From the IMG/VR virus record IMGVR_UViG_3300033148_007488, positions 1 through 64,000 of that record: 64,000 bases of DNA. One strand, given 5' to 3'. The stretch comes from a virus (Duplodnaviria > Heunggongvirae > Uroviricota > Caudoviricetes). Position numbers and translations under genes: made by a program. The notes under the pieces were generated by a model, which saw nothing but the letters and a program-made list of their open reading frames with translations, ran no database searches and had not been told where the DNA came from. This document shows, in pieces, positions 12,113 to 31,359 of the stretch; the stretch's first letter is position 1; the number at the start of each line of letters is the position of its first letter.

Positions 12113-12145
12113 AGTTAGCGTATTTTTTCATGATTGGCTTCACCT

Positions 12146-12910: not shown

Positions 12911-13068
12911 AATAAAAGACTACAACATACTGGCGAATGTATTTAAGCATTAATACCTTATTTGAATACTACCGACCTACCGCTACATATGAACCAATGT
13001 TTTACACATTTATCAGGTCGGTAGCATAGTGTTAAGTTTTTTTTATGCGGCCACAAAAAGATCCACTT

Positions 13069-14702: not shown

Positions 14703-14893
14703 GAATTTGCCTTAAGCCAATTAGTTTAATCAGGATCGAAAAACACCAAGAGTAATAGTATCGTAAATAGTCGTTTAATTTATGCATTTTTATTTGAAGA
14801 TACCGCCCAAATCGAGCGGTATCTGAAATTCCTTAGACCGGGAAAAGGCCCGGCACCTTGCTTTCTGATACTTTTTCAGGCATTGCCCGTATT

Positions 14894-15190: not shown

Positions 15191-15446
15191 AACTAATCCT
15201 CCTTTTTAAATTATGAAGATAGATGCCGGATGGATCTACCAAAAATGTCTAGCCAGTTTAATCCGGCCTAGCCTGTATGAAACCTTTCGGCTCCAACTTA
15301 CGCATTGTGGTCTCCTGTTTGAGTTATAAAGTAATACTTAAGTACTGAACTAATACCCAAAAAGCCACAATTAAGTGGCTGTAAGAGCATAGGCATATTT
15401 TTAGCCATGAGATTTAAGGGTAATTATCGTTTACCCTTAATGTTAT

Positions 15447-16216: not shown

Positions 16217-17491
16217 GTGGGAAAATGTGTCAATAGATATTTACGGAATTATGCACCACCGTTTGCCCATAATACCATATTATGCAACGATTATCTAAAA
16301 ACTAACTTACCCGACAAGGTTTTTATGAATTATCAAGCACCAGCCCCCGCAATGTCTTTGTTCTCAGCAAAAAGACCGGAAGAAAAGATCCACGTAAAAA
16401 AGAAAGAAGTTTACACTCTTGAGGATAGTTACAGCTTCCAAGGTATGCCTATTTCCATTGAAAATAAAGCTGGGAACTATCGCACAGGCAAAGACGGAGA
16501 CGGCCACGAATGGAAAACATTCATGTATTATGATTATGGATATATCAGAAATACAGAGGCTAAAGATGGTGAAGCCGTGGACGTTTATGTCAACAAAGAA
16601 GGCAGGAAATCAAATCTGGTTCATGTAATCCACCAAAAGAAAATTGAAGAAGTAAAGAAGTGGAAAAATGGAATCTGTCCTACCTGCAAGAAAAAGCATT
16701 TCAAATGCAAACACGCTTATGATGAAGATAAGGTTATGCTTGGATTTGATTACCGTGATGATGCAATCAAAGCTTATACCGCTCAATATGATTCTCCTCT
16801 TTTCTTGGGGCCTGTCTCTACCTACACAATTGAGGAATTCAAAGGACATCTCAAGAATTCGTGGGGGAAGAAACTTCCTTATAATAGGTTAGAGAAGGGA
16901 TGTGCAGTCAAAAAAGGGAATACTAGGTTTATAACAACTTCTGAATTGGGTACAAAGGTTGACGAAATGTACAAAGCCGATAAAAAAGAAGGCGAAACAA
17001 GAGATGAGTTTGTTAATAGATCCTTGAAAGAAATTGTAGCCAAACAACAGATGTCTGGGCTGGACAAATCCTATCTAGGACAACCAGGAGATCCAAGAGG
17101 ATCATTCGCATGGTTAAGAGAAAATCTGGATACCGTACCAGCCTCTTCAAAAATAAAAATAAAGAACAAAGTAACACTCGCTACTTACGAAGCACCAAGT
17201 TATTTAAAAACAACCATCGATGAAATATTAACCAGTAAAATGGAGAAAAGTATGGAACCTTATTCAGTCAAAAAACATTCTTGTACATCTGATGAAGATT
17301 ATATGTTGAATCGTGAACAAGGAGAAACCAAACAACAGTACGATTGGCGGATGAGGCTTGAATCCAGAACTTCAAAAGGAAGTCGGATTTGGAATGAAGG
17401 TGTTCATGTAGAAGCTGTAAATGATTATCCTCACGGAATGTACAAATCTACTAAAAAAATTATTGTTCCAACAGAAAAACAGGTGATATGA
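16217..17491 (+). CDS. Hypothetical protein whose N-terminal region resembles the inorganic-pyrophosphatase fold.
   Basis: 'ISIENKAGNYRTGKDGDGHEW..FMYYDYGYIRNTEAKDGEAVDVYV' aligns to E. coli PPase '[21 protein letters not shown]...[25 protein letters not shown]'. The downstream Asp residues are not conserved. The real start may be the internal ATG at 16325 (MNYQAP...). The stop overlaps the start of effector paralog A. Confidence 0.45.
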   Translation: MGKCVNRYLRNYAPPFAHNTILCNDYLKTNLPDKVFMNYQAPAPAMSLFSAKRPEEKIHVKKKEVYTLEDSYSFQGMPISIENKAGNYRTGKDGDGHEWKTFMYYDYGYIRNTEAKDGEAVDVYVNKEGRKSNLVHVIHQKKIEEVKKWKNGICPTCKKKHFKCKHAYDEDKVMLGFDYRDDAIKAYTAQYDSPLFLGPVSTYTIEEFKGHLKNSWGKKLPYNRLEKGCAVKKGNTRFITTSELGTKVDEMYKADKKEGETRDEFVNRSLKEIVAKQQMSGLDKSYLGQPGDPRGSFAWLRENLDTVPASSKIKIKNKVTLATYEAPSYLKTTIDEILTSKMEKSMEPYSVKKHSCTSDEDYMLNREQGETKQQYDWRMRLESRTSKGSRIWNEGVHVEAVNDYPHGMYKSTKKIIVPTEKQVI

Positions 17492-18432
17492 TGCAAGTTC
17501 CTAAATTACTTCTTTTCAGTCCTTTCCAAAAAGGTTTCGTCAGGGCTCATACCCGTAAAGGTAAAACCGTTGGCCCCTATTTCACGAAACGCCAGAAAAA
17601 AATAGGCACTGTCAAGCACACCAAAAAAACAAGAGTGGACTATTCCGAAAAGGATGCTCAACTCAAAATCAAACTCTTGGAAGAAAAAAAGAAACACCAT
17701 AATCTCCACGTCGAAGCGGCTAAAGAACTAAAAGAAAAAGTCGATTCTCACAAAGCAAAAGGCCATTCAACCTTCAAAATAGGCAACAAAGAACACGACA
17801 TCTCAAAGGTCGCCAAAGATCTGAATAACCATATTGAACACCACTCTAACGAGGTCAAATCACACGATAATCATATCTCAAAGATCAAGGATCGATATAA
17901 AACGGATAGGGAGTATTTTGCTAAGAAAAAAGTGGTAAAAACAATCGTAAAAAAAGAAAAACCGAATATGCACGTTGATTTATCGAATCTTCCAAAATTG
18001 GAAGGTGTTTCAGAAAAACAAGTTAGTTATGCTAATGATATAAGGGATGTTGTTTTAAACAATGATATTATAAAAGTTCTTGATGCGACAAAAGAAAATT
18101 ATGATAAATCAATAAAAGAACAAAGAGAACGGCTAAGAAGCAGAGGAAAATCAGATAGCAAATCGCTTTTAAGAAAAATTGAATATCAAAAAACTATTGA
18201 TAGATATAAAAATTTACTTGGAAGATTTAAGAAAGAAACAAGCGCATCCTTTTTTTTAGATCATCACCATTCTATGTTAAAAGTTTATAGACGGTCTACT
18301 ATGTCAGAAAGAATGCAGCAAATGAGTGATGATTGGATCAAGAGCGAAAATATAAAAGATGCCAAATCATACATTGAGTATGACTTGGCAATGAGGGACA
18401 ATCCGATTATGCCAATGTTAAGCAAGCTTTAA
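17488..18432 (+). CDS. Paralog A of a putative packaged/ejected protein family. It has the conserved N-terminal module plus a unique C-terminal domain.
   Basis: The N-terminus MMQVPKLLLFSPFQKGFVRAHTRKGKTVGPYFTKRQ.. is shared with ORFs 20136, 26853 and 29452. About 450 nt at the 5' end are roughly 90% identical to 26853..27300. Confidence 0.6.
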   Translation: MMQVPKLLLFSPFQKGFVRAHTRKGKTVGPYFTKRQKKIGTVKHTKKTRVDYSEKDAQLKIKLLEEKKKHHNLHVEAAKELKEKVDSHKAKGHSTFKIGNKEHDISKVAKDLNNHIEHHSNEVKSHDNHISKIKDRYKTDREYFAKKKVVKTIVKKEKPNMHVDLSNLPKLEGVSEKQVSYANDIRDVVLNNDIIKVLDATKENYDKSIKEQRERLRSRGKSDSKSLLRKIEYQKTIDRYKNLLGRFKKETSASFFLDHHHSMLKVYRRSTMSERMQQMSDDWIKSENIKDAKSYIEYDLAMRDNPIMPMLSKL

Positions 18433-18949
18433 ATTCATCCTTGGTTATGTTTGAGCATAATACATTTATCTGTTCAGCATGTTCTTTGATATTTCTAGCT
18501 CTATCAAATACAAATTTCCATGATATATCTTGTCCGCCTTGTGATAAATTTAAACTCTTACTTACATATGTTTTGTTAGTGACATTCCTATCGTAAATAG
18601 TCATCCATTCGCTTGTGCCATAAATATGTAATTCAAAACCATCTGGGATTACAAATAATTTTTTATGTTTTCCTCTCATAAAACCGGATTTTATCTTTGA
18701 TATCCATATGTTTTTTTGTGAAGTCAGATCTTGTAAGTGAACCCCAACTTTCCCTTCTTTTTTATGGTTATACCGCTCGTTAATTTCTTGAATGTTGTCA
18801 TTCACCCATTTTCTTGATTCAAAAATTTGTTGCGAATTATGAGCAATATACTTTCTCCAGCCTAACTTGCACCCTATTTTTAGACTTTGAATATCATTAG
18901 ACTGGAATTCGTGGCTATAATCTATCCCATTAGATAATCTAAATTTCAT
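18407..18949 (-). CDS. Hypothetical protein.
   Basis: ORF of 180 aa, convergent with paralog A. Confidence 0.45.
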   Translation of the reverse strand: MKFRLSNGIDYSHEFQSNDIQSLKIGCKLGWRKYIAHNSQQIFESRKWVNDNIQEINERYNHKKEGKVGVHLQDLTSQKNIWISKIKSGFMRGKHKKLFVIPDGFELHIYGTSEWMTIYDRNVTNKTYVSKSLNLSQGGQDISWKFVFDRARNIKEHAEQINVLCSNITKDEFKACLTLA

Positions 18950-19200
18950 GATATAGCCTTATCCACACAGGCTCTCATTTTTTCATCAAAAGAGTCATCT
19001 TCGTACTGATCAAAATCATCATCTTGTTTTGTGAGTAAACGATAAAACCCGTATGGAGTATGGCGGAGCGGTATCTCAATTTCAACATTACCGTTTTTAT
19101 ATGTGATTTCAAGTTCTATTTCATTGAGTATTTTTACTGATGTTACAAAATAATGTGCTGTTGCTATTCTAACACCTTGTTCCAATGTTGTTTTTAACAT
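18946..19200 (-). CDS. Hypothetical small acidic protein.
   Basis: ORF of 84 aa. It is preceded (on the - strand) by the repeated promoter-like element and GGAG. Confidence 0.45.
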   Translation of the reverse strand: MLKTTLEQGVRIATAHYFVTSVKILNEIELEITYKNGNVEIEIPLRHTPYGFYRLLTKQDDDFDQYEDDSFDEKMRACVDKAIS

Positions 19201-19206
19201 CCCAAT

Positions 19207-19480
19207 CTCCAGTTTTGATGTTTTGTTAAATCTTTGTGACTCAACTTGATATTAGTAGATCATAGTAAATTTACTAATGCAAGCTTTATTTGAATTTATC
19301 CACGAGTTTTTTTAATAAAACATTCGCTGGATCATCTGGCTTCCTGTCTTCCCAGTTTCTAAGGAGTTTTGTCGCAAAAGCCTTGAACCCCATGTTCAAA
19401 CCAGCTTCCTGAATCATTTTATCCATTCGTTGGTTCTTGCGTTTTATTAGTTCTTTTTTTGGTATTGCTGCCATGTTTTC
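19207..19480. repeat. Copy 1 of a ~270-bp duplicated segment (small basic-protein gene plus a ~85-nt upstream-element module). A second full copy lies at 28331..28600 and a partial copy (element only) at 19981..20060.
   Basis: 'CTCCAGTT..AAATCTTTGTGACTCAACTT(G/A)A(T/C)ATTAGTAGATCATAGTAAATTTACT(A/T)ATGCAAG' plus the near-identical 61-62-aa ORF. On the - strand the element ends in GGAG followed by the ATG of the downstream gene. Confidence 0.55.
19286..19474 (-). CDS. Small basic protein (62 aa), paralog of 28409..28594.
   Basis: 'PKKELIKRKNQRMD.M..EAGL.MGFK.FATKLLRNWEDRKPDDPANVLLKKLVDKFK' is nearly identical in the two copies. Confidence 0.5.
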   Translation of the reverse strand: MAAIPKKELIKRKNQRMDKMIQEAGLNMGFKAFATKLLRNWEDRKPDDPANVLLKKLVDKFK

Positions 19481-19495
19481 CTTTGAATTTGATTA

Positions 19496-19524
19496 AAGCC
19501 CCGAAGGGCTTATTTTTAAAAATA
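19496..19524. terminator. GC-rich tetraloop hairpin AAGCCC-CGAA-GGGCTT (a UUCG loop on the minus-strand RNA), followed on the + strand by ATTTTTAAAAAT.
   Basis: A perfect 6-bp stem. It sits 4 nt after the stop of 19516..19974 and 22 nt before the next start. It may be a terminator or an RNA-stability element. Confidence 0.3.
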
Positions 19525-19974
19525 CTTTTCAACTTCTTTTCGGAAAGAAACGGATTCTGTTTTCCAATCATACCGTTCAGAAATTTCTTTTAGTTCTCCA
19601 TTATCCTGAACTTTATAAATAAGACCCTCTTTATATCCATTTTTAACTGATCCACAAGGTATGCATTCAATTACAATAGAACCTGAATCAATTTCATGCT
19701 GCCCTTCTGAGAGAAAATCACCGACATATGCATAGCCATCTTTTTGAGTTGAGTCTATTGAGGTTACATGTTTTAGCCATGATTCACGTCTTCCACTCGC
19801 TGTTCTTGTCACGATAGTAACAGTAACGAGTTTATTTTTAGATTTCGGTTCAACTGTTTCCTGAAGTTCATTTTTCCAATCATTCAACATTGTATCGGCT
19901 TTCCCGCCTTCAATAAAGCTATTCCGTTTAAGATCTGCTATAATTTCACAGATAAAGTCTAAATCTTTTTTCAT
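19516..19974 (-). CDS. Hypothetical protein.
   Basis: ORF of 152 aa. It is preceded by a copy of the repeated upstream element. Confidence 0.5.
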   Translation of the reverse strand: MKKDLDFICEIIADLKRNSFIEGGKADTMLNDWKNELQETVEPKSKNKLVTVTIVTRTASGRRESWLKHVTSIDSTQKDGYAYVGDFLSEGQHEIDSGSIVIECIPCGSVKNGYKEGLIYKVQDNGELKEISERYDWKTESVSFRKEVEKYF

Positions 19975-19980
19975 ATCAAT

Positions 19981-20060
19981 CTCCAGTTGATTTATTTTGC
20001 TGAATCTTTGTGACCCAACTTAATATCATTAGAACAAAGTAAACTTACCTTGTCAACCCA
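19981..20060. repeat. Partial third copy of the upstream element (CTCCAGTTGATTTATTTTGCTGAATCTTTGTGACCCAACTTAATATCATTAGAACAAAGTAAACTTAC).
   Basis: It lies immediately upstream (on the - strand) of gene 19516..19974. Confidence 0.45.
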
Positions 20061-20135
20061 TATTTCACCCTTTGAAAAATAATTTAAAATAAGTAATATA
20101 ATCCATGGAGACACTAACTAATATTAAGGCTTATA

Positions 20136-21893
20136 ATGATTATTCCTTTATTTACTCTTTTCACCCCTTTTGAAAAAGGTTTCGTCCACGCTACAAGCTA
20201 CACAAACAAGCAAGGAAAGCCTGTTCACCGTAAGGCATACACAGACAAGCGTATTGCCAAAAAAGTAGTAGCAAAGGACAAAATACGCACTCCATGGACC
20301 AAAGATAAAACCTACCAAGAAGTCAAAGAAAAGCTTCACACCGAAAGAGACTCACTAAAAAAGAAACTCGAAGATGTCCGGGCTCACAAAGAAGAACTCC
20401 TTGAAGCAAAAAAGAAAGGATACACCCACACAAAAAGAGGAATCAAGGTTGATCATGAACACCACCTGAAAACCCACGAAAAGAATATCCATGAAAAACT
20501 GGAAACCACCAATCACAAAATCATGCTCCACGCAAGTCACAAAGAGTTGCTTAGAGAAAAAATTGAGGAGACAAGGGAGAAAGCGAGAGAAAAAAGAAAA
20601 GCCACTTCAAAAGAATTCAAAAATCAATCTGAATACATGGATTGGTACAGGAAGCAATCCACAAAAATAAAGGATGAACATAAGCTTAATAAAACTGATG
20701 GGAAGTTGATTGCATCGTGGGGTAAACCTTCAGAAAAGAAACCTCTTCCTAAAAAAGCTGTAGTGGTTAAGGATAAAAAGAAAGTCTCTGTTCCCCCTAA
20801 AGTTGCAAAGCAAAAAGAAAAAGATATTAAATTTTATACTAGACGGTTAGAAAAAGTTAAAGATCATTGGGGCGGTGATAACAAAAGCGGTTCTATGGGT
20901 GCTCAGGAAAAAGGCCCGTTAATGATAAAATATGCTCAAGCACAGCTTGACGCTGTTAAAAATGGAAAAAGTCCTTTTGAAGTAAAATTAAAAGAGGAAA
21001 AGATAGTAGTCCCCAAGGAAAAAGAGATTGATTATTCAAAAATCAAAGTAGGCAGAGAAGACTACAAAGAAAGAAAAGAAGCTAAAATTGACCGATTAAG
21101 AGATAGAGCAGAAAAAGCGCAAAGTGAATCTGATTCCAGATATAAATCAGCAAAGCAAACGGCTGATATGATACCATTCGGGCAACCTATTTTAGTTGGA
21201 CATCATTCTGAAGGAAGGGCAAGAAGAGATCAGCAAAAAATTCATGATAATATGGGCCGTTCAATCAAAGCACAGGAAAAAGCTGGAAGATTAAGTGATA
21301 GAGCAGACTCCGCAGAAAATAATCGTTCTATCTCCTCAGATGACCCAGAGGCGGCAGTTAAGCTAAAACAAAAGCTTGATAATTTAGAAAAACTTCAAGC
21401 AAAAATGAAAGAAATAAATGCAGCTTACAGGAAGTTTAAAAAGAATCCTGCCACACTTGATAAATCTGGCTTAGAAGAAAATCACAAGAAAACAATCAGA
21501 GATTTTGTCCCTCAATATTCATGGGAAAAAGGACCATTCCCATCATATAGAATGACAAACAACAACGCTACTATCCGCAACACTAAAAAGCGTTTAGATG
21601 GCATGGTAGCCAGTTCGGGTGCAGAAACAAAAACTCTTTATGAAAAAGGAGATATTAAGGTAGTCGATAATGTTGAAGATAATAGAATTCAAGTGCATTT
21701 CCCTGATAAGCCAGATGAAGCAACAAGAAAAGCTCTTAAATCGAATGGTTTTAAGTGGGCTCCTAGTGTTGGAGTATGGCAACGCAAGCGGTCTCCTAAC
21801 GCCAGATTCTCGACTAAGTATTTAATTAAAGAGTTGGAGTCTATGTCCAAGTCCGTAGCAATTCCTTTAATGCTATTATTCAAAGCTGTCTAA
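20136..21893 (+). CDS. Paralog B of the packaged/ejected family. It has a divergent N-terminal module (MIIPLFTLFTPFEKGFVHA..., K/H-rich helices) and a C-terminal DUF3560-like region.
   Basis: The LF.PF.KGFV motif is shared. The C-terminal 'IPFGQPILVGHHSEGRARRDQQKIHDN' resembles the DUF3560 family I recall from plasmids and phages (..iPfGQPilvGHHSe.r.rr...). Confidence 0.55.
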   Translation: MIIPLFTLFTPFEKGFVHATSYTNKQGKPVHRKAYTDKRIAKKVVAKDKIRTPWTKDKTYQEVKEKLHTERDSLKKKLEDVRAHKEELLEAKKKGYTHTKRGIKVDHEHHLKTHEKNIHEKLETTNHKIMLHASHKELLREKIEETREKAREKRKATSKEFKNQSEYMDWYRKQSTKIKDEHKLNKTDGKLIASWGKPSEKKPLPKKAVVVKDKKKVSVPPKVAKQKEKDIKFYTRRLEKVKDHWGGDNKSGSMGAQEKGPLMIKYAQAQLDAVKNGKSPFEVKLKEEKIVVPKEKEIDYSKIKVGREDYKERKEAKIDRLRDRAEKAQSESDSRYKSAKQTADMIPFGQPILVGHHSEGRARRDQQKIHDNMGRSIKAQEKAGRLSDRADSAENNRSISSDDPEAAVKLKQKLDNLEKLQAKMKEINAAYRKFKKNPATLDKSGLEENHKKTIRDFVPQYSWEKGPFPSYRMTNNNATIRNTKKRLDGMVASSGAETKTLYEKGDIKVVDNVEDNRIQVHFPDKPDEATRKALKSNGFKWAPSVGVWQRKRSPNARFSTKYLIKELESMSKSVAIPLMLLFKAV

Positions 21894-22190
21894 TGTGCGA
21901 AGGTTGCAGGATCATCATAAAAATGTAATAATCATATAATTTTAACGCTAAAGGTCATCAGCGGCCACAAATCCAGCCCATAGAAAGGGCTAGAATAAGA
22001 CAATTAATTTCACATTACAGCGGCGATTAACCCGTCTGCTGTACCGATTTGTTAGTTTTTTAAAAGGTAGAACGATGACAAAAGTTAATATGTTTGCATA
22101 TAAAATGAGAATGTCTGAATTAATAACAGGCAACCCGTTAGCATGGTTTTTGAATCCTGGGTATTGGGTAAAAAGTAATGCCCCTAAAAA

Positions 22191-22889
22191 TCACAAACAA
22201 AATCTCGACAACTGTTTGAAATTTTCTTGCATTAAATCTAAAGGTGATGAATAGCAAGAATATGAAAATGCTTTCCCACCACTAAATACAAACATTGATC
22301 CGACTTCACCAATCAATGATGGTTCGTCAGATTTGTCCTTTTCTATTAGTTCCCTGAAATATTTAGCGGGGTCTTCCGTGATTCTGGTTTCGTTAAAAAC
22401 GATATTCAAAGACTGCTTGTTGGCCAGAGCGAAAGGAATTAATCTGCGGTCACGGCACAAAACATAATTTAGTTCGTCTTTTATTTCTTCTGGAGGGTAT
22501 ATGGTGATTATAGCTCGATGGATTGTGAATTCCACATAATCTAATATAATCAATTCAGGGCGATTTTTAAGTAAAAGAGCGTATTCAGCATCTGTCAGCT
22601 TTTCCTTAATAACACCGTGAGTAACTTTGCTGTAATATTTCGCTAGATCAGTAATTTTTTTTAACAATGATTCAACATCATTATATTTATCATGTTTTTC
22701 AAATTCTGAAAGATAAGAAATAGGATCTATTATTTCTGATATGCTGTCTGAGCCACAAATAGCAATAGCATACCTATTGCCGACATAGCTAATCTTATCC
22801 ACCCTAATATTGTGCTTCGATTCTAAATTATCAGCAGCCAACACTCCAAACTTATCTTTTTTCGAAACGTACCCATAAATAGCTGTCAT
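22191..22889 (-). CDS. Hypothetical protein.
   Basis: ORF of 232 aa. The N-terminus is MTAIYGYV... Confidence 0.5.
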   Translation of the reverse strand: MTAIYGYVSKKDKFGVLAADNLESKHNIRVDKISYVGNRYAIAICGSDSISEIIDPISYLSEFEKHDKYNDVESLLKKITDLAKYYSKVTHGVIKEKLTDAEYALLLKNRPELIILDYVEFTIHRAIITIYPPEEIKDELNYVLCRDRRLIPFALANKQSLNIVFNETRITEDPAKYFRELIEKDKSDEPSLIGEVGSMFVFSGGKAFSYSCYSSPLDLMQENFKQLSRFCL

Positions 22890-22966
22890 ACATTTCTCCT
22901 ATGCTATTTGATTAAAAAATCCCTCTTTTGATATGATCACCTAAACCTCAAATTTAAGGAGACGAA

Positions 22967-23302
22967 ATGGGGCTCAAAACCATAACAACAGAAGAATTAA
23001 ATAAAAAAACAGAAAAAGAACTTTTGGTCCTCATTTTTAGAGAACAAGAAGCCACCTATCACGAAACTAATAGTGTAAGCTACCAGCTTAGATTAATCGC
23101 TTCATTAATGATGATTAATCAAAATCATGAAGGGATTAAAAAAGCTGGATTTGAAGGGCTTATACCAATGAAGCACCTAGGAGTGACGAAAGAATACCTG
23201 CAACAAGTGGGTGTTTCGCTAGATCTTGGATGGTTCCAAGGAGATCAGACTTTTGGTCAGGAGACAGCTCAGGATGATTCTCAATCCGATCAGAAAGTTT
23301 AA
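22967..23302 (+). CDS. Hypothetical protein.
   Basis: ORF of 111 aa with a strong SD (AAGGAGACGAAATG). It overlaps the convergent ORF 23160..23639 by about 140 nt, so one of the two may be shorter or spurious. Confidence 0.4.
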   Translation: MGLKTITTEELNKKTEKELLVLIFREQEATYHETNSVSYQLRLIASLMMINQNHEGIKKAGFEGLIPMKHLGVTKEYLQQVGVSLDLGWFQGDQTFGQETAQDDSQSDQKV

Positions 23303-23639
23303 GGAGTAGGTCAAGGCCTGAAGAGTTATTAACTGTAGCGGTCGAATTATCGAAGGCGATGCCCGCACCATGAATAGAACCATTGAAATTTATGCTTGTG
23401 TTACCACCCTCAACGACACCACGAACAATATTGTATCCTTTTTCAGTCAGCTTAATTGATTGCCCATATTCTTGTTTGATAAGGTCACGTTCAAAAAGAG
23501 GACTTAAAACATAATTGGGGTCCGAAGTGTTCACGGCTTTGAAAATTAATGTTTTAGGAATAGGTTTAATTCCCTCTTTTTCATGAGTATCAGCCATGAA
23601 TTTTAGGATGTCTTTTTCTATTGGTGATAATGGTAACAT
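23160..23639 (-). CDS. Hypothetical protein.
   Basis: ORF of 159 aa with protein-like composition. It overlaps the convergent + strand ORF. Confidence 0.4.
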   Translation of the reverse strand: MLPLSPIEKDILKFMADTHEKEGIKPIPKTLIFKAVNTSDPNYVLSPLFERDLIKQEYGQSIKLTEKGYNIVRGVVEGGNTSINFNGSIHGAGIAFDNSTATVNNSSGLDLLLKLSDRIENHPELSPDQKSDLLGTIQDLAKHPLVAGILSSLLGASLV

Positions 23640-23826
23640 TTTCTATCCCATATTATGATGAATAAATTAAAAATAAAACAAGCTATCAGAGACATAGGTA
23701 TAGCCCTGAATTTAGTTAACAACACCATAGCCACGGATGACGTGAACGCACAGCCATCTGAAACATCATGGCAGGTTGACAATTCAAAAGAGATCGACCA
23801 GTTGAAGGAGCTTGAAAGATTACTCC

Positions 23827-24033
23827 TTAATGACACTGATACCTGCCCTTTATGTAATCACTGTAATGAGTTCCCTTAGACGTTGAGTTGTAAAAGCTAT
23901 CAAATACAACTTGAGGGACATTGCAGTACTCATAGGTGTCACCACTCTGTACAAATGTGACTTCCATTCGTTGTGTCATGGAGTCATAACCTATGGAACT
24001 GATGGCCCTTGATTGAACGTCAAATGTTTCCAT
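23827..24033 (-). CDS. KTSC-domain small protein.
   Basis: 'IGYDSMTQRMEVTFVQSGDTYEYCNVPQVVFDSFYNSTSKGTHYSDYIKGRY' matches the KTSC domain pattern (..Yd.....L.v.F..G..Y.Y..Vp..v...f..a.SkG..f...Ik..Y). Confidence 0.5.
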   Translation of the reverse strand: METFDVQSRAISSIGYDSMTQRMEVTFVQSGDTYEYCNVPQVVFDSFYNSTSKGTHYSDYIKGRYQCH

Positions 24034-24086
24034 ATTTTTACCACTAAAGAAGTTCTTAAACTAACTCGAAATCACTGGGCGGCTTT

Positions 24087-25118
24087 ATGCTCCAGTGTAT
24101 TTATTTGTTAAAAATGTGCGAAGAATGCAACCAAAAGCACCATTCTATATTTCAGTCTGGTGTTGAAACTGGCTTATCCCACTTTGACCAATTAGATACC
24201 TATTACCCTGGACTGAATCAATACGGTGTTGAATATGATAGCATGAAAAAAGCTGTTGTCATCAGTCCCCAAAAAGTAAGGTACGGTGAAGAGTCCTTTG
24301 ATAATTACATTCAGGAGCTTCTTGAAGAACTTAGTGATGGTTTAAGATTAGGAGATAAAAAAGAGCATATCAAAAATGTTCTACGAAAATTCAGTGACCG
24401 GAAATTTCAAGATAAGAACTGGTGGGGAAACCTGACTGAAAAGGAACTTGAAGAGCTTTTAGCAGGGATCAGGTCTTACTACCTTCCTCACACCGCAATG
24501 CTCAATTCTGGACTATCTGAGGCTTATATTTTCGGCAAATTCTCAAAACTTCTTACTGAAAGCATGTCTCTTAAGAAAGCCAGAGCGACAGTCAAAGGAT
24601 TAGAACTCACCACTTTTGATAAAGCAAGAATCGATGCCATTCAAAAGACCTCTCATATATTCTGGAACAAAGCGATCAGTAGAGAAGCAGATTCAGCAGC
24701 CATTAAATTACTCAAATACAACCGGGACGTAACAACTGAAATCCTCAAAGATCCAAATAGAAAGAATTGGCGGTCCTTGACCAGCGATATATACAACAGT
24801 ATAAATAAAGACAAATCAATTATTTTAAGGGATTTAGACAGAATTACGAGGACTGAAACGGCTTATTCTCAGAATTATGCGGTGTTGGCTTCGGGAAAAG
24901 ATACAGGGGCCAAATACTTTTTTGTTCAGGTCAGACCAACGGCCTGTAAGATTTGCAAAGGGATGTATCTTTACAAGAATGGGAAGCCAAGGCGGTTTTT
25001 AATTGAGGATGTTATGGATTTGCCAAGGGATCTTAATTGGGGTAAAAAACCTAATGATTTCAGTATGACAGCACCACCCAGTCACCCGTTTTGCTTTTGT
25101 AGAATTATGACAGAATAA
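24087..25118 (+). CDS. Phage head-morphogenesis protein of the Mu gpF / SPP1 gp7 (MuF) family.
   Basis: The C-terminal signature is 'RTETAYSQNYAV...APPSHPFCFCRI' (RTE....PP.HPnCRC). It lies in the effector block, away from the capsid module. Confidence 0.6.
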   Translation: MLQCIYLLKMCEECNQKHHSIFQSGVETGLSHFDQLDTYYPGLNQYGVEYDSMKKAVVISPQKVRYGEESFDNYIQELLEELSDGLRLGDKKEHIKNVLRKFSDRKFQDKNWWGNLTEKELEELLAGIRSYYLPHTAMLNSGLSEAYIFGKFSKLLTESMSLKKARATVKGLELTTFDKARIDAIQKTSHIFWNKAISREADSAAIKLLKYNRDVTTEILKDPNRKNWRSLTSDIYNSINKDKSIILRDLDRITRTETAYSQNYAVLASGKDTGAKYFFVQVRPTACKICKGMYLYKNGKPRRFLIEDVMDLPRDLNWGKKPNDFSMTAPPSHPFCFCRIMTE

Positions 25119-25147
25119 CAACGATATCAGTAACGTAGGAGGCGAAA

Positions 25148-25282
25148 ATGATAAAATGGGCAGTACTTGGGACAATATTTGTAATAGGTCTCTACTCAAT
25201 CATAGGAACAGTATGTCAAAGCAGAAACGAGTTTGTTTCTGGAATCTTAACTTTTACAGGGCTAAACCAAACCTGTAATAAA
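25148..25282 (+). CDS. Possible 44-aa single-TM peptide (MIKWAVLGTIFVIGLYSIIGTV...).
   Basis: I translated it by hand. It has a strong SD (TAGGAGGCGAAAATG). The overlapping - strand ORF 25216..25620 looks like a shadow. Confidence 0.3.
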
Positions 25283-25300
25283 TTGATCAAAAGGTGAATT

Positions 25301-25759
25301 ATGAATGAACAAAAATTGAGAGAGAACAATAAAAACCTGAAAATTGAGAATGACAAACTCATAATCAAGATTAAGGAATTGGAAAAGAACGCTCCTCTTC
25401 TGGAAAAATCAACAAAGAAAGTGGATGATCTTGGATCGCAATTAGAAGAATCAAAAAACAAAGTATCAGGTCTTTCCATTGAAGTGGAAAGCAGAGATTC
25501 ATCTATTAAAAACATGCAAGGCCAGATTTCAGCATTGGAAAAGAAGGTTGGAAAAGCAAGTGGACCTTTCCCACGTCTTCCTGTTAGAAATAGCAGCATA
25601 CAAAAAGCGGTTCTTGCCACAGAAATCGGAATCAGCGAAGATGAGCAATTACAACTTTATTATGTCGAGATGAAAGATAAAAATATCCCGGCATGTATGC
25701 TGAAAGTTCGGATGAAAAACGGAAAATGTACAAGTGCTGATTTCAGTCGGTGGAAATAA
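25301..25759 (+). CDS. Coiled-coil protein.
   Basis: ORF of 152 aa with heptad-like K/E-rich sequence. Confidence 0.5.
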   Translation: MNEQKLRENNKNLKIENDKLIIKIKELEKNAPLLEKSTKKVDDLGSQLEESKNKVSGLSIEVESRDSSIKNMQGQISALEKKVGKASGPFPRLPVRNSSIQKAVLATEIGISEDEQLQLYYVEMKDKNIPACMLKVRMKNGKCTSADFSRWK

Positions 25760-25778
25760 ACTTGAATTTAGGAGACGA

Positions 25779-26285
25779 ATGGAAGACGATCTATACGATG
25801 ACATTTTCAGCCAAAAAAAGAATTTACCTGTATCAACAAAGCCCAATAAGAATGTCAAAACAGTTGAAGAGAAGGTAAAATTATGGCAGGAAATAGCCAA
25901 TAGGTGGCGTACAACGATCACGCAAAATGAAAAGGTCATTGTTATTTTTTGCATGTTGGCAGGGTTTGTATACTCTTATGCTGTCAATGAATGTACAGGG
26001 AATTTTGATGTTCCAATCTATGTATACGCTATGGCATTTGGAATTGTTATCCTTTGTTCATTGCTATTGATAGCCGAAAAGACGTTGCCTTTGCTGGTAC
26101 TGGTTAAGTTTTCAGCAGCGGCAGCTTTCGGACATGTAGCTATGATGTTTTTGATTGTAGCTGATGGGCCTATTGGGGTATTTACGGTTGCAACGTGTAG
26201 TTCACCTGTAACTATCGACTCTGTTATGGTCTGGCTTTTTGGATCAGGTACAGGTTATATAGCCGCTAATTTTCAGATGGAATAA
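25779..26285 (+). CDS. Multi-pass membrane protein.
   Basis: The start is probably MEDDLYDD, preceded by SD GGAGACGAATG. The track starts the ORF at 25734. The C-terminal half holds 3-4 hydrophobic helices. Confidence 0.5.
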   Translation: MEDDLYDDIFSQKKNLPVSTKPNKNVKTVEEKVKLWQEIANRWRTTITQNEKVIVIFCMLAGFVYSYAVNECTGNFDVPIYVYAMAFGIVILCSLLLIAEKTLPLLVLVKFSAAAAFGHVAMMFLIVADGPIGVFTVATCSSPVTIDSVMVWLFGSGTGYIAANFQME

Positions 26286-26593
26286 TGATGAAATATATAT
26301 TCATTCTCCTCTTCTTAATTAGTTGTAATGGAGAAGTTAAAGAAAAACCTGAAGAAAAGGTCAATATTCAAAGATTGGTCGGGATACTCCAAAATGCCGA
26401 ACTCGATCAAGAGATTTTAGTCGGTGGAGGATTTAAAATTACCGGGCATTTTGATTACAAGATTAAAAATCGTGGAATAGAGGAAGAGTGCAAAGGTTCT
26501 ATTTTCAGAAAAGAGTTTCCTGAATCTTTCTTTTATTTTTATGTTGATTGTCGTGGGAATTATATGTTTAATCTTTTGAGGAAAAAAATATGA
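26285..26593 (+). CDS. Small lipoprotein.
   Basis: MMKYIFILLFLISC: the lipobox is L-I-S-C. The start overlaps the upstream stop (TAATGATG). Confidence 0.5.
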   Translation: MMKYIFILLFLISCNGEVKEKPEEKVNIQRLVGILQNAELDQEILVGGGFKITGHFDYKIKNRGIEEECKGSIFRKEFPESFFYFYVDCRGNYMFNLLRKKI

Positions 26594-26856
26594 GTTTTAT
26601 ATGGGATATATGGAGTCTTTACCATTTTTGGGCATTGCTCCCTGTAGCAATAATGTTTTTCTTTGGTGCGTTTCTTTGGGTAAAAGTTGTTACTCCAAGT
26701 GATTATCATGAACGGAAGGCATGGAAACAACAGCGAGAAAATAAGAAATCAGGTCAAACAAAGTTCAGGCGTGTTGTTATGACCTCAATGATCTTAGTGT
26801 TCGGGTTGATGGCTTCAACAACATTCTGTTTTTCCTTCTATATGGCACTCAAATGA
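26590..26856 (+). CDS. Small two-TM membrane protein.
   Basis: ORF of 88 aa with two hydrophobic helices. It is coupled to its neighbours by ATGA overlaps. Confidence 0.5.
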   Translation: MSFIWDIWSLYHFWALLPVAIMFFFGAFLWVKVVTPSDYHERKAWKQQRENKKSGQTKFRRVVMTSMILVFGLMASTTFCFSFYMALK

Positions 26857-28148
26857 TACCCAGTATCCTTCTTTTCAGCCCCTTCCAGAAGGGATTTGTC
26901 AGGGCTCACACTCGCAAAGGGAAAACCGTTGGCCCCTATTTCACAAAACGTCAAAAGAAAATAGGCACCGTCAAGCACACCAAAAAAACCAGAGTCGATT
27001 ATTCAGAAAAGGATGCTCAACTCAAAATCAAACTCTTGGAAGAGAAAAAGAAACACCATAATCTCCATGTCGAAGCGGCTAAGGAACTCAAAGAGAAAGT
27101 CGATTCTCACAAAGCAAAAGGACATTCAACTTTTAAAATAGGCAATAAAGAACACGACATTTCCAAAGTGACCAAAGACCTGAATAATCACATTGAGCAC
27201 CATTCAAATGAAGTGAAATCACACGATAATCATATCTCAAAAATCAAGGATCGATATAAGACAGATAGGGAGTATTTTGGGAAGAAAAAGACACTTGTTA
27301 AAAAAGAATCCCCTATCTACAAAATAGAAAAAATAGGAGATTCAGACAGGTATAACTTTTATTATCCTGAAAAAGACGGGACACAAGGGTCCATGAAAGG
27401 AAGGCCGTTAGGACAAATTAGTATGTTTTTTAAAACTGGAAGGGCCACTGAAGCAATACCAGATAAGTTTGAAGGAAGAGAACATATGGGTGATTTAGTG
27501 CTAAAAAGTAAACCACGAAATGACCAGAATCCTACTCTTAGATTAGAAAAGAAAGGGCGAAAGTACAATATTTATTACCCTACACATGCAGGAAAACACG
27601 GTATAGTAGAGGGGCAAACTTTAGACCAAGCAAAAGATTTCTTCAAAAGATGGGCTAAAGGACCAGACGAATTTGAGGGGAAACATCTTCTTTTAAAGGA
27701 ACCCCAAAAAAGAGCTAAACCAAAACCAAAGAAAGTAGAACAACAGATAGATAGGGTTGATTATGAATCATTTTCAAAAGATGGGTGGGTACATAGAAAA
27801 ACAGCTTTAAAATTCACTCTCACAGAATCAGTAACGAAAACTCATTTCAAAGAATTGATGAGGCTTTCTCATAACTATAATTCAAGAGAAAAAACAGGGT
27901 ACATCAATGAAGACGACAAGGAAAAATTTCTTGCGCTTACCAATAAAATGAAAAGCTCAAGCCTCAAAAGAGCTAAAACATCACACAAAAGATCTTTAGA
28001 AAAGTTTCAAGAGATGAAACAGCAAAGTCGTTCAGGAGAGAAATACACTTTTGAAGACTACGTGGAGGATTTTATGGATCAGCACGTAGCCTTGATGTCA
28101 GATAAAGACAGGAGTGAAGCTTATAAAAACTATATAAGAGACACTTAA
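26853..28148 (+). CDS. Paralog C of the packaged/ejected family. It has the N-terminal module plus a C-terminal domain with an internal ~40-aa repeat.
   Basis: The first ~150 aa are nearly identical to paralog A. The C-terminal part repeats 'YN.YYP...G..G...G..L.QA..FFK....A..PD.FEG' twice. Confidence 0.6.
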   Translation: MIPSILLFSPFQKGFVRAHTRKGKTVGPYFTKRQKKIGTVKHTKKTRVDYSEKDAQLKIKLLEEKKKHHNLHVEAAKELKEKVDSHKAKGHSTFKIGNKEHDISKVTKDLNNHIEHHSNEVKSHDNHISKIKDRYKTDREYFGKKKTLVKKESPIYKIEKIGDSDRYNFYYPEKDGTQGSMKGRPLGQISMFFKTGRATEAIPDKFEGREHMGDLVLKSKPRNDQNPTLRLEKKGRKYNIYYPTHAGKHGIVEGQTLDQAKDFFKRWAKGPDEFEGKHLLLKEPQKRAKPKPKKVEQQIDRVDYESFSKDGWVHRKTALKFTLTESVTKTHFKELMRLSHNYNSREKTGYINEDDKEKFLALTNKMKSSSLKRAKTSHKRSLEKFQEMKQQSRSGEKYTFEDYVEDFMDQHVALMSDKDRSEAYKNYIRDT

Positions 28149-28330
28149 GATGGTTAAAATTGAAAATTTCTGGGGTCTTCATATTGGATGTCTTTTTCGG
28201 CCATTAAATTTAAAAGAAAGAATAAAACCTTTCTCATGATTTTTAATTTTGCGGAATATGTGTTTTCAAGTTTGTTAACCTTTTTTATCAAGTTTGATAT
28301 TATGCTTCTTATTTTAGCTTTCATCTTAAT

Positions 28331-28600
28331 CTCCAGTTAGTGGTTTCGTTAAATCTTTGTGACTCAACTTAACATTAGTAGATCATAGTAAATTTACTTA
28401 TGCAAGTTTTATTTGAATTTATCCACGAGTTTTTTTAATAAAACATTCGCTGGATCATCTGGCTTCCTGTCTTCCCAATTTCTCAGGAGCTTTGTAGCAA
28501 AAGATTTGAATCCCATGTCAAGACCTGCTTCTTTGACCATGATATCCATTCTTTGATTTTTACGCTTTATAAGTTCTTTTTTAGGTATTGGCATTGTTTC
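28331..28600. repeat. Copy 2 of the ~270-bp duplicated segment.
   Basis: See 19207..19480. Confidence 0.55.
28409..28594 (-). CDS. Small basic protein (61 aa), paralog of 19286..19474.
   Basis: It has the near-identical sequence and sits inside a ~270-bp duplicated segment. Confidence 0.5.
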   Translation of the reverse strand: MPIPKKELIKRKNQRMDIMVKEAGLDMGFKSFATKLLRNWEDRKPDDPANVLLKKLVDKFK

Positions 28601-28668
28601 CTTTTGTTAAGCTCCCATTAAGAGAACTGGTTTGTTTTTTGGTTAGCATTTCATTAAAAAAAACTTGT

Positions 28669-29322
28669 TCATGCTGTTTTTTTGTTCCTGTAATCTGCGA
28701 TAATCTTTTCTACGTTATCGATTCCATTGTTAATAGCTTGAAAAGCTATACTGTTTCTTGCAACCATACTTTTCACGTATGCCTGATTTTTAGGCGAGAA
28801 CAGTTTTTCAGTTTCATCACCGATAATTTCTTTTTCCACGGCATTGTATAATCTTTTTGCTTTAGGGTTCATTTCACCATGTCGAGTTCTATTATCGGTG
28901 TATTTTTTTTCGCTAAAAAACGACATTGCAATATTACATGGAACATAATAGTCGACTTTATCTCTGAATACACGCCCATAGATGGGGATCAACGGGACAG
29001 ATTGAGCACAAATAAACTGTGCTCCGTTGATAGTATAGTACCAACTGTCTCTTGATTTCGCTAGTTTAAGATTTAGACCTTTCGACATTAAGAAAAGATT
29101 CACATACAGCAATGCTTCAATGTTTGTTTCTGTCTTTTCGCATATATCATTATACATCAGTTCAAAAAGAACAGCATGTTTCATGGACCTATCCTTTTTT
29201 ACTAATTTCTTTTCGTGATCAAGAATTTTAGACAGTAATTCTTTGACTTCTTTTTGTTCGTTTGTGAATTTCATCTTCATCCCCCATTTGTTTGTTTGTT
29301 TCGCTTCGTCTGATTGACTCAA
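28669..29322 (-). CDS. Hypothetical protein.
   Basis: ORF of 217 aa. It is divergent from paralog D across an intergenic region holding a 30-bp palindrome. Confidence 0.5.
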   Translation of the reverse strand: MSQSDEAKQTNKWGMKMKFTNEQKEVKELLSKILDHEKKLVKKDRSMKHAVLFELMYNDICEKTETNIEALLYVNLFLMSKGLNLKLAKSRDSWYYTINGAQFICAQSVPLIPIYGRVFRDKVDYYVPCNIAMSFFSEKKYTDNRTRHGEMNPKAKRLYNAVEKEIIGDETEKLFSPKNQAYVKSMVARNSIAFQAINNGIDNVEKIIADYRNKKTA

Positions 29323-29345
29323 CTTAAATATACAATCTCATAAGT

Positions 29346-29375
29346 GTAAACATTATGTCAAACAAAATGTTTACA
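29346..29375. promoter_or_regulatory. Second copy of the 30-bp palindromic element (putative operator), between divergent genes 28669..29322(-) and 29452..31359(+).
   Basis: Identical to 44901..44930. Confidence 0.5.
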
Positions 29376-29451
29376 AATAATCATCTGTTTGAAATAAATT
29401 TTTAAATATGTAAAAGATAAGTATAATATATTAACTCATACTGAAATTAAA

Positions 29452-31359
29452 ATGATACCCAGCCTACTTCTCTTCAGTCCATTCCAGAAAGGATATGTTC
29501 AGGCCCACACACGTAAAGGAAAAAGAGTAGGTCCTTACTTCACCAAAAGACAGCCCGGACAAGTCCAAGAAAAGCATACCAGAGACCGCTTTATTGACCA
29601 CGACAAAGCCAGTGCATCCAAAGCCCATGAAGAACTTGAATCACTTAAAGCCAAGCACCAAGAATTACTCAATGCAGCCAAGAAGCATCATGATGAAATA
29701 AAAAGCAAAGGACCAGTTGAAGGCGAAAGGGTAGACCACAAAACAAAACTTTCTCATCTCAAAGCAGAAATCAAGAATCAAAAGACTCACATAGACAACC
29801 ATTCCAGAAAACAAAAACTGATCAAGGACCGCTACAAAATAAGCAGCAAGCAGATTACCCAAAGAAAATCAAAGTCTGATCTGGAAAGAAAAATAGCTTC
29901 CCACTCAGACGGACAGAAAAAAACTATTCGTGCAATTCACGAAGCCCATAAAAAAGGTGAATCAAAACTTGAGCCTGGCAGAATTCTTAAAGGCAAAGAT
30001 AAAGACCATATTTATCTTGAAACAAAGCACAAGGACACAGGAGAAGCGCACCATATCGCCATTCATAAAGATGGTTCAGTTAAGGACCCCAATATTCTCC
30101 ATGGTGGAAAATTCGATTCAAAAACACTCAAAGAAGATGCCAAGCCAAAGAAGATTGTAGTTAAGTCTGAACCTAAAAAAGGAGTGACGGTTAAGAAACA
30201 AGAGCCATTTAAAAAAGTTGAGAAATCTGAGGCTAAGAAGATCGGTGTTAAGAAACAAGAGGAGAAAAAACAGACAAGATCGCAGGCCATGAAAGGCAAT
30301 AAGAATGCGTGGAAGGGAGGACCGAAGGATGAACCGAAAAAAGTCAAAGTTAAAACAAAAGAGGGATTGACAGCAAAAACTGGAACTTTAACATCAGGTG
30401 AAAAATCATCTTTGAGTTGGTATTCAGGAGATGGATTCCATAAATTAAATGAATATTTAAGAAAAGATAATGCATCTAAAAATAAGAGTCTTGATAAATT
30501 TACAGATAGTTTAAATAGTGCAATTAGTAAAAGTGAGATCACTAAAGATACAACGCTATATAGAGGCATAAACAATGATGAGTTAACAAAAAAATTCCAA
30601 TCAGTTAAAACTGGAAATAAGATTCCTGTTAGTTCGTTTCAAAGTACATCTTCTAGCGAACGAGCTTTATTTGCTCATGCAGGACTTGTAGGTGTTGCAT
30701 TGAAAATTAATGTTAAAAAAGGAACAAACATAGCTGATCTTGCAGGCAGCGGCACAGCTATGGACGCTAAAGAACAAGAAATCCTGTTGCCAAATAAAGG
30801 GCATTATGTGGTTAAAAGTGTAAGCAAACCAGAAAAAGGTGAATTAGGAAGAACTATAGTTGAAGTAGATTATATTCAAGATGAACAGGAAAAGAATGAA
30901 GATAAAAAAACTTCTAAAAAAGTTGAGAAATCTGAGGCTAAAAAGATTGTTGTTAAAAAATTAGATCAGGAGAAAAAAGAAACCAGGCTACCTGAAATAA
31001 AAAAAGGCCATTATATAAAGCGCAAGATATCGGGGCTCGGAGACAGACCTTCACCTTGGGAATATGTTTCATCTACTGTTAAAAACGGATTCATGGTTGA
31101 GGGTAGACCTTTTACGGTTCCGTTTTCAGATATTATAAGCGTTAGAACAGGAAACCCAGCACTTGGCCGTGGTGACGTGATTTATGATGATGGAAGCATC
31201 CAATCTAGGGTATTAAAGAAATCCATACCCACAACATCCAAACAATTAGAAAACTTATTGCAAGAAGAAAGACTGTTCAAATCCCTCAAATCTCCAGAGG
31301 AAATAAAACTCCTCAAGGAGAAGAGGAAACGAAGAAAGAAACGTAAAAATAAAAGGTAG
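29452..31359 (+). CDS. Paralog D of the packaged/ejected family. It carries the N-terminal module and a C-terminal mono-ADP-ribosyltransferase domain (R-S-E class, C3/Vip2/Alt-like).
   Basis: The N-terminus is MIPSLLLFSPFQKGYVQAHTRKGKRVGPYFTKRQ. The ART motifs, in order, are 'SLSWYSGDGFHKLNEYLRK', 'TLYRG' (Arg codon 30562-30564), 'FQSTSSSER' (STS at 30643-30651) and 'AKEQEILLP' (EQE at 30772-30780). The ART domain is flanked by 45-bp direct repeats encoding KKVEKSEAKKI.VKK. Confidence 0.7.
   Translation: MIPSLLLFSPFQKGYVQAHTRKGKRVGPYFTKRQPGQVQEKHTRDRFIDHDKASASKAHEELESLKAKHQELLNAAKKHHDEIKSKGPVEGERVDHKTKLSHLKAEIKNQKTHIDNHSRKQKLIKDRYKISSKQITQRKSKSDLERKIASHSDGQKKTIRAIHEAHKKGESKLEPGRILKGKDKDHIYLETKHKDTGEAHHIAIHKDGSVKDPNILHGGKFDSKTLKEDAKPKKIVVKSEPKKGVTVKKQEPFKKVEKSEAKKIGVKKQEEKKQTRSQAMKGNKNAWKGGPKDEPKKVKVKTKEGLTAKTGTLTSGEKSSLSWYSGDGFHKLNEYLRKDNASKNKSLDKFTDSLNSAISKSEITKDTTLYRGINNDELTKKFQSVKTGNKIPVSSFQSTSSSERALFAHAGLVGVALKINVKKGTNIADLAGSGTAMDAKEQEILLPNKGHYVVKSVSKPEKGELGRTIVEVDYIQDEQEKNEDKKTSKKVEKSEAKKIVVKKLDQEKKETRLPEIKKGHYIKRKISGLGDRPSPWEYVSSTVKNGFMVEGRPFTVPFSDIISVRTGNPALGRGDVIYDDGSIQSRVLKKSIPTTSKQLENLLQEERLFKSLKSPEEIKLLKEKRKRRKKRKNKR
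30205..30280 (+). repeat. Left copy of a ~45-bp direct repeat (AAAAAAGTTGAGAAATCTGAGGCTAAGAAGATCGGTGTTAAGAAA) flanking the ART domain. The right copy lies at 30919..30963.
   Basis: The protein repeat is KKVEKSEAKKIGVKK / KKVEKSEAKKIVVKK. Confidence 0.5.

Follow-up and report, generated by a model that had tools for sequence, protein, structure and literature searches.

A Shared N-Terminal Leader on Short Polyvalent Effectors of an Uncultured Tailed-Phage Lineage: A Candidate Head-Loading Signal

Introduction

Polyvalent proteins combine 2 to 15 disparate domains in one polypeptide and are predicted to be packaged and injected (Iyer, Burroughs, Anand, de Souza & Aravind 2017; PMC5512222). The survey contrasts them with the layout in which a constant N-terminus carries variable cargo (PMC5512222). 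Mass spectrometry has shown one polyvalent protein, gp47 of phage phi24B, to be present in virions (bioRxiv 10.64898/2026.04.10.717836). Little is understood of how phages choose large multi-domain effectors for packaging into their heads. In this work, we analyzed a 64,000-nucleotide (nt) stretch of a Caudoviricetes virus (IMG/VR record IMGVR_UViG_3300033148_007488, positions 1 to 64,000; hereafter the window), in which four genes encode paralogous proteins that begin with a common leader; each protein is named here after the first nucleotide of its gene (17488, 20136, 26853, and 29452). These genes and the adjoining InPase gene are short or "solo" lineage-specific polyvalent effectors in a head-morphogenesis module. 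On balance, we favor the reading that the four proteins are loaded into the head and injected, with the leader as the loading signal.

Capsid-targeting sequences are short N-terminal peptides on injected proteins, namely, IPI-III and Alt of T4 and DarB of P1 (PMC9024508; PMC5694885), and the proteins described here, whose injection we infer, carry such a peptide too. The parallel extends to activity and architecture, in that Alt, like 29452, is an ADP-ribosyltransferase (ART), and DarB is itself a polyvalent protein. Capsid-targeting sequences of the T4 type are removed by the prohead protease. The N-terminal 30 amino acids (aa) of DarB are sufficient for capsid targeting, and BLAST analysis found no N-terminal consensus among the P1 Dar proteins (PMC9024508). 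Unlike these, the present proteins, known from their genes alone, have an obvious consensus that is common to two to four paralogues per genome, and the motif is also found at C-termini.

Other systems are similar in part. The inner-head and ejection proteins of phiKZ and SPN3US resemble ours in having several paralogues per genome, conserved N-terminal regions of more than 100 aa, and a proposed head-internal location. However, we found no sequence relationship, those proteins are not carriers of polyvalent effectors, and their propeptides, which are long and N-terminal, are removed at defined S/A/G-x-E sites, whereas no cleavage motif was definable in the present family. Polymorphic toxins and MuF-toxin fusions also join a constant N-terminal part to exchangeable C-terminal effectors, but the MuF-like gene is separate here; no MuF or secretion-related Pfam family was found in 33 scanned family members, and no immunity gene was evident, although no systematic search for one was made. 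Encapsulin cargo-loading peptides are short, lie at the N- or C-terminus of the cargo, and dock on the inner face of an HK97-fold shell; the likeness of the leader to them is one of analogy only.

Results

Leader and Basic Hairpin of the Four Proteins

The four open reading frames (ORFs) at 17488-18432 (314 aa), 20136-21893 (585 aa), 26853-28148 (431 aa), and 29452-31359 (635 aa) were verified, all on the plus strand. Their first ~45 aa are alignable throughout, with 14 invariant positions within residues 1-35 (P5, L9, F10, P12, F13, K15, G16, V18, A20, K26, P30, Y31, K34, and R35 in the numbering of 17488). An initial sequence-only reading had reported this shared N-terminus, and coordinates, strand, alignment, and the profile scan described below all confirm it; the string KDRYK, which it assigned to three of the four, is present in three.

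Two parts make up the shared region. The first is a hydrophobic leader of 7-15 aa (IPxLLLFxPFx) ahead of K-G-F-V; in 17488, leader and KGFV read MMQVPKLLLFSPFQKGFV (aa 1-18, nt 17488-17541). The second is a basic beta-hairpin (AHTRKGKxVGPYFTKR), usually followed by a Lys/His-rich antiparallel helical hairpin. The module extends to ~aa 146 (nt 17925) in 17488 and covers aa 1-144 (nt 26853-27284) in 26853. In 20136, whose module is B-type, the leader is MIIPLFTLFTPFE and the hairpin KGFVHATSYTNKQGKPVHRKAYTDKR. In the A-type protein 29452, leader and hairpin occupy aa 1-145, and the conserved N-region reaches ~aa 230 (nt 30141).

Between 17488 and 26853, module identity is 99% at the protein level but only ~89% at the DNA level, with a sharp break at ~aa 145. 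Across 138 codons, 45 differences are synonymous and 2 are non-synonymous (synonymous divergence dS ~1, non-synonymous divergence dN 0.006, dN/dS ~0.006), which indicates that the duplication is old and extremely constrained rather than recent. The helical part of 20136 has a like composition and aligns in register with the other modules. Homology with the 17488/26853 type was not significant in hhalign (probability 2.7%, E=0.017), and we therefore claim for it only analogy and the existence of mosaics, such as family member P0034, in which a 20136-type hairpin is joined to 17488-type helices. As judged from the alignments, four-way homology is secure over the first ~45 residues only. The ~150-aa module of the sequence-only reading is composite, in that the link to the polypeptide start is confined to its first 7-15 aa.

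An AlphaFold model of the module, built from 25 family members, is extended and of low confidence over residues 1-50, with a small beta-hairpin at 19-26, and forms an antiparallel helical hairpin over residues 52-151, with a predicted local distance difference test score (pLDDT) above 90 and a short beta-hairpin at the tip. For the 29452 type, the confident region continues to ~residue 230 through a further helix and a three-stranded sheet; the alignment was too shallow for the ART part of 29452 to be modelled (pLDDT below 50). Structural matches of the module were generic coiled-coil hairpins, the best being prefoldin beta subunits, to which the similarity was not significant (E=0.2, template modelling score 0.65 on the target). 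No match in Pfam, PHROGs, or NCBIfam covered the module, LPD families included, and a PDB sequence search with it returned nothing. A weak tape-measure PHROG match (2.7e-5) is spread over residues 40-409 of 26853, and a DUF6047 match in 17488 was sub-threshold (16 bits vs 27).

The four proteins are the most basic of the 63 gene proxies in the window (isoelectric point, pI, of 9.8-10.0 against a median of 6.6). Lys makes up 17-19% of their residues and the net charge is +8 to +10 per 100 aa, with residues 1-45 carrying +7 to +12. Judging by charge alone, it is plausible that the module binds DNA.

Position and Co-variation of the Leader

Six internal copies of the module, found in InPase-type proteins, match the family profile from position 12-14 only and therefore have no leader. 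Four InPase-type proteins with an internal module (P0023, P0024, P0030, and P0031) have a leader-like N-terminus of their own, e.g., MSTQLLLFSPLQKA; that of P0014 is weakly leader-like, and P0034, being a fragment, lacks the N-terminal end. The window has the InPase protein in two pieces, of which the downstream one, 17488, starts with MMQVPKLLLFSPFQ. The leader therefore tracks the polypeptide start, not the helical domain. The N-terminal placement put forward in the sequence-only reading, which is also that of capsid-targeting sequences, applies to 30 of the 36 members of the family (motif start at residue 20 or earlier), whereas the hairpin part is internal in the six InPase-type copies.

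Leaders are more alike within than between genomes. Their mean similarity was 0.61 for paralogues within a genome (n=7) and 0.24 for orthologues between genomes (n=21; Mann-Whitney p=0.0018), and the relation was reversed for the next 45 aa (0.25 for within-genome paralogues vs 0.52 for between-genome orthologues, p=0.0002). For instance, one IMG/VR phage has the leaders MNQIIIPRSEFFQKGFV and MQIVIPRSEFFQKGFV, and the related contig L003 has MILIPLEKGFV and MILLPLKKGFV. This co-variation fits the pattern that would be expected of a signal co-evolving with one phage-specific receptor.

A Rare Family with Polyvalent Cargo

An exhaustive scan of 1.84 billion cluster representatives with a 46-position motif profile (E<=1e-3) gave 37 hits, 36 of them genuine and one, P0020, a low-complexity artefact. 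The window's own proteins scored 2e-22 to 2e-16, and the members range from 76 to 2039 aa in length. The N-terminal similarity is therefore real and the family is rare. Word-indexed homology searches returned almost no matches, such that the exhaustive scan was needed. Six related contigs were recovered from independent samples, and at least six other phage contigs have kept the motif. Searches of 50,697 cultured phage records and 185,579 species genomes turned up no relative and no copy, respectively; a first IMG/VR scan for relatives gave nothing useful, a second gave one related contig, and a metagenome scan gave two short contigs. Separately, the 20136 homologue in the ENA contig L001 is interrupted by an in-frame TAG (1128-1130) behind codon 78, beyond which the frame continues and homology stays clear; a sequencing error, a pseudogene, or TAG recoding could account for this.

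Among the 33 scanned members, the cargo domains behind the module are InPase (5/33), ddrB-ParB (3/33), DUF3560, ART-PolyVal, LPD1, SNF2-type helicase, and RadC-JAB (2/33 each), and a zinc metallopeptidase (Peptidase_Mx) and ADPrib_exo_Tox (1/33 each). This repertoire identifies the family as lineage-specific polyvalent proteins, with InPase, ART, ART-PolyVal, ddrB-ParB, LPD1, SNF2, and metallopeptidase among the hallmark domains shared with those described. Also as in described polyvalent proteins, solo and multi-domain versions coexist and domains are shuffled. The relatives of 880-2039 aa are multi-domain, whereas the window proteins consist of the module and one or two further domains and are therefore short or "solo" versions. 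A constant N-terminus with variable cargo, as first read from the window, holds across the related phages, and the C-terminal swapping proposed as a check was found in them, with the same cargo behind different module subtypes: a segment of 386 aa is common to P0006 (A-type) and P0035 (B-type) at 56% identity, and one of 714 aa to the proteins L002_1766 (InPase-type) and L004_16739 (A-type) at 46% identity.

What differs from the described polyvalent proteins is that every polypeptide of this lineage begins with one leader, usually followed by one hairpin module, and that stereotyped linkers join the domains. The linker KK(I/V)VV(K/P)K occurs 30 times in 30.7 thousand aa of family sequence and 0 times in 14.5 thousand aa of other window proteins; a second, AMxGNxNA (AMxGNxNAxKGG), occurs 24 times in the family. 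These linkers mark domain borders and may be processing sites or recombination joints. The protein class itself is known; new for this class is the common leader-hairpin-linker grammar with genome-specific leaders.

C-Terminal Domains of the Window Proteins

In 20136, DUF3560 (PF12083) spans aa 310-429 (nt 21063-21422; 122.1 bits against a Pfam cutoff of 27.2, 2e-35), and the protein ends with a leader-like motif, AIPLMLLFKAV (nt 21858-21890). A literature search for the function of DUF3560 gave no result. In 26853, the module is followed by an internal tandem repeat with a ~70-aa unit at about residues 152-292 (nt ~27303-27728; score 97, matched by 0/1000 shuffles) and then by a helical C-terminus. 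In 29452, an ART domain (PF03496, ADPrib_exo_Tox) spans aa 312-471 (nt 30385-30864; 61.4 bits against a cutoff of 23.4, 9e-17) and has all R-S-ExE residues of the R-S-E clade (YRG370, STS398, and EQE441). Two 61-nt direct repeats, 84% identical (30210-30270 and 30915-30975, plus strand), flank the ART domain and encode the linker KKVEKSEAKKI(G/V)VKK. The ART, DUF3560, and internal repeat named in the sequence-only reading are upheld by these Pfam and shuffle tests; for the C-terminal domain of 17488, no Pfam, PHROG, or NCBIfam family was matched.

The C-terminus of 29452 is a polybasic helical tail (aa 596-635, nt 31237-31356). This tail (...KEKRKRRKKRKNKR) closes all A-type proteins, namely, 29452, those of the related contigs L003 (5199-10004), L004 (16739-20575), and L008 (11405-14305), and P0019, P0022, and P0027. 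Both ends of the A-type subfamily are thus constant and the middle is variable.

Genomic Context in the Head Module

The block lies downstream of a portal-like gene (6886-8742, plus strand; weak PHROG match), which serves as a synteny anchor. The InPase-domain gene (16217-17491, plus strand; PF18823, 9e-30) directly abuts 17488, whose start overlaps the InPase stop (ATGA); the true InPase start is probably Met46 at nt 16352 (MSLFSAKRP...). Together, the two genes are collinear with the single InPase polyvalent proteins of relatives, in which the module is internal. A candidate MuF-like minor head protein gene (24087-25118, plus strand; 343 aa) matches PHROG minor-head-protein families (6e-8), ends with an H-P-x-C-x-C motif (HPFCFCR), and keeps a conserved position after the portal; in the related contigs L002, L003, L004, and L007, it is preceded by the InPase gene and followed by the polyvalent genes. 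Three small hydrophobic or lipoprotein-like genes (25734-26285, 26285-26593, and 26590-26856, plus strand) are directly upstream of 26853, whose start overlaps the stop of the last, a small membrane-protein gene. Homologues of two of these three are found at a like position in L002, L003, L005, L007/8, and L010, and the three might encode membrane-inserting ejection proteins.

In L003, the portal gene (44% identity to 6886-8742), InPase, MuF-like, and small genes, and two polyvalent genes are contiguous on one strand, and the portal-InPase-MuF-like-polyvalent order is also found in L002, L004, L006, and L007/L008. In the window, the head module is broken by minus-strand blocks (8739-16163, 18407-19974, 22191-24033, and 28409-29322). 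From the synteny in relatives and these interruptions, the block is the portal-proximal part of a head module, and its description in the sequence-only reading as unlike the structural modules was misleading. Location by portal and head genes is likewise a feature of described polyvalent proteins, with the reservation that the portal and capsid calls here come from weak PHROG matches. Further head genes on the plus strand encode a head-maturation-protease-like protein (50607-51371; phrog_1028, 1.4e-7), an acidic scaffold-like protein (51368-52183; pI 4.4), and the major capsid protein (52212-54152; weak PHROG match).

The long N-region of the capsid protein (~150 aa) is poorly conserved apart from one island, which is strongly conserved among 23 homologues. 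A resemblance of the leader to this island (IPPxFLGPxKPFVKSFDDHL, residues 57-74) was considered and rejected: the pairwise score was marginal (equaled in 12/500 shuffles), and with a hidden Markov model of the island built from the 23 capsid homologues no polyvalent N-terminus scored above noise. In L011 (CP070742.1, Candidatus Zixiibacteriota, 1195072-1216594), a partial capsid homologue (51% identity) and three upstream small genes are flanked by cellular genes (Mg chelatase, cytochromes) in a 3.7-Mb genome. This locus may be what is left of a prophage, and it may hint at which hosts the wider lineage infects.

Several repeated elements lie in or near the block. A perfect 29-nt repeat with an inverted repeat (GTAAACATTATGTCAAACAAAATGTTTAC) is found at 29346-29374 and 44902-44930, where none is expected by chance, just upstream of promoter-like regions of the ART gene 29452 and of an SLT-like gene (44976-45803); it is a candidate operator common to both genes. 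An element of ~100 nt that resembles a promoter and 5' leader with a GGAGAT ribosome-binding site occurs three times (19192-19291, 19966-20065, and 28315-28414) upstream of small minus-strand genes, and a minus-strand gene of 61-62 aa is duplicated (19286-19474 and 28409-28594; 88% nt identity). The insertions on the minus strand, which split the head module, therefore come with repeated expression signals of their own. A further string, CCCTTTGAAAA, common to the upstream regions of 20136 and of the head operon at 49913, was set aside, as it occurs at chance frequency once one mismatch is allowed.

Among other genes of the window, the minus-strand gene 12146-12910 has an HslV-family peptidase PHROG match (2.5e-22), and 22191-22889 (minus strand) starts with MTAIYGY..., reminiscent of an N-terminal-nucleophile hydrolase, without a family match. 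A PAPS-reductase-like gene (34861-36159, minus strand; phrog_2302, 1e-107) lies near a ParB-like gene (36752-37555, minus strand; phrog_2159, 2e-67), and Ant/Rha-like regulator genes are found at 15447-16163, 37842-38588, and 40863-41690.

Discussion

Taken as head-loaded effectors, which we consider the somewhat probable reading, the four proteins would work as follows. The leader and the basic hairpin would be recognised by a phage-specific component of the assembling procapsid, for which the portal, the MuF-like protein, the acidic scaffold, and the inner capsid surface are candidates. Each leader-bearing polypeptide would thereby be loaded into the head, with any proteolytic processing it may undergo. 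These very basic proteins, rich in linkers, would lie with the DNA and exit through the tail at infection, and the cargo domains (ART, DUF3560, InPase, and others) would then act on the host. The effector interpretation of the sequence-only reading is in part supported, by layout, polyvalent cargo, synteny, and leader co-variation; it is weakened by the composite nature of the module, the weak MuF call, and the C-terminal motifs. Head loading also accords with the rarity of the motif, the constraint on the 17488 and 26853 modules, the tie of the leader to the polypeptide start, the shuffling of cargo, the charge of the four proteins, and the precedents of P1 DarB, T4, the giant phages, and phi24B gp47. 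A more specific proposal, which we hold to be possible but doubtful, is that the leader is a genome-specific, transferable cargo-loading signal able to act at either terminus, that the basic prefoldin-like hairpin holds cargo or anchors it to DNA, and that the linkers are plug-in joints.

Several observations weigh against head loading by an N-terminal leader. The pairs behind the co-variation are few and non-independent, and gene conversion at 5' ends could contribute to it, although the leaders of 29452 and 26853 differ at 7/36 nt, four of them synonymous. The module is not strictly N-terminal, given its six internal copies, and a leader-like stretch (YYVDFEKSFV) is internal in P0014. Five members (20136, P0016, P0017, P0021, and P0038) have a leader-like motif at the C-terminus, for which a simple N-terminal signal does not account. 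The gene 24087-25118, which the sequence-only reading had assigned to the MuF family, keeps its PHROG minor-head match but falls below curated MuF thresholds (no Pfam PF04233 hit at E<=0.1; TIGR01641 at 14.5 bits vs 39.65). The genes 20136 and 29452 stand behind their own intergenic regions among minus-strand regulator- or moron-like genes, so that their co-expression with late genes is an assumption, on which a promoter and terminator scan, with no enrichment over shuffles, was uninformative. Finally, the lineage is uncultured and is known here only as sequence.

The module could instead bind nucleic acid or a host factor, in which case the effectors would be made in the infected cell and never packaged, and the leader would be a linear docking motif. 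A candidate host target is the beta sliding clamp, whose motif QL[SD]LF is also found at protein termini. The extreme positive charge and high His content would suit this, and so would the leaders that read QLLLF or QMLLF (P0024, P0016, and P0005), the occurrence of the motif at either terminus, and the separate upstream regions of 20136 and 29452. However, most leaders have no Q and several have no LLLF (MILIPLEKGFV, IIPRSEFFQKGFV), yet they keep P-(F/L)-x-K-G-F-V, which is not clamp-like. Identity of the leader as a beta-clamp-binding motif was rejected on account of these divergent leaders, and it is kept only as a low-probability alternative. Furthermore, with a host target, one would not expect leaders to differ from phage to phage yet stay alike within a genome, and the synteny with the portal and MuF-like genes and the polyvalent cargo set indicate packaged proteins. 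We regard a role confined to the infected cell as unlikely.

The helical hairpin might also be a structural component inside the head, such as a scaffold, core, or inner body, that oligomerises through its tip, with the enzymes as passengers and the leader as an assembly contact. The confident model of a helical hairpin with a beta-hairpin tip and the prefoldin beta subunits as its best, if non-significant, structural matches are consistent with this idea, as are the several paralogues per genome, recalling the phiKZ/SPN3US inner-head families, and the acidic scaffold-like gene next to the capsid gene. Against it, the fold matches are generic coiled-coil hairpins, we found no homology to any scaffold or inner-body family, and the module can be internal in proteins of 1200-1700 aa. 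A structural role, which we judge improbable, is less an exclusive alternative to head loading of effectors than an overlapping one.

An export or membrane-targeting signal is suggested by the hydrophobic N-terminal stretch and by the small membrane/lipoprotein genes nearby, but we consider it very improbable, as the hydrophobic run, of only 4-7 residues from residue 2-5 onward, has no charged n-region before it and a highly basic soluble domain after it, and the leader motif is also found at C-termini. That the shared N-termini are a mere trace of recent duplication or gene conversion within one genome, without common function, as the segmental duplications in the block (D1-D5 and the duplicated 61-62-aa minus-strand genes) might suggest, is already contradicted and hardly credible, since synonymous sites are half saturated between the closest copies while the protein is unchanged (dS ~1, dN 0.006) and the motif recurs in independently sampled phage contigs, at least six besides this one.

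Should the more specific proposal above hold, these parts would form a modular "load and inject" system, and the leader would be, for polyvalent proteins, the first capsid-targeting signal with a consensus, evolving together with a receptor in the head. The lineage offers a recognisable leader on every such protein and thus a concrete peptide for testing. The within-genome co-variation of leaders points to a specific receptor, and the partner could be found by co-evolution analysis or complex prediction. The leader may also be a portable tag for loading foreign proteins into capsids. Assembly of polyvalent proteins from standard leader, hairpin, linker, and cargo pieces would help to explain the shuffling of their domains.

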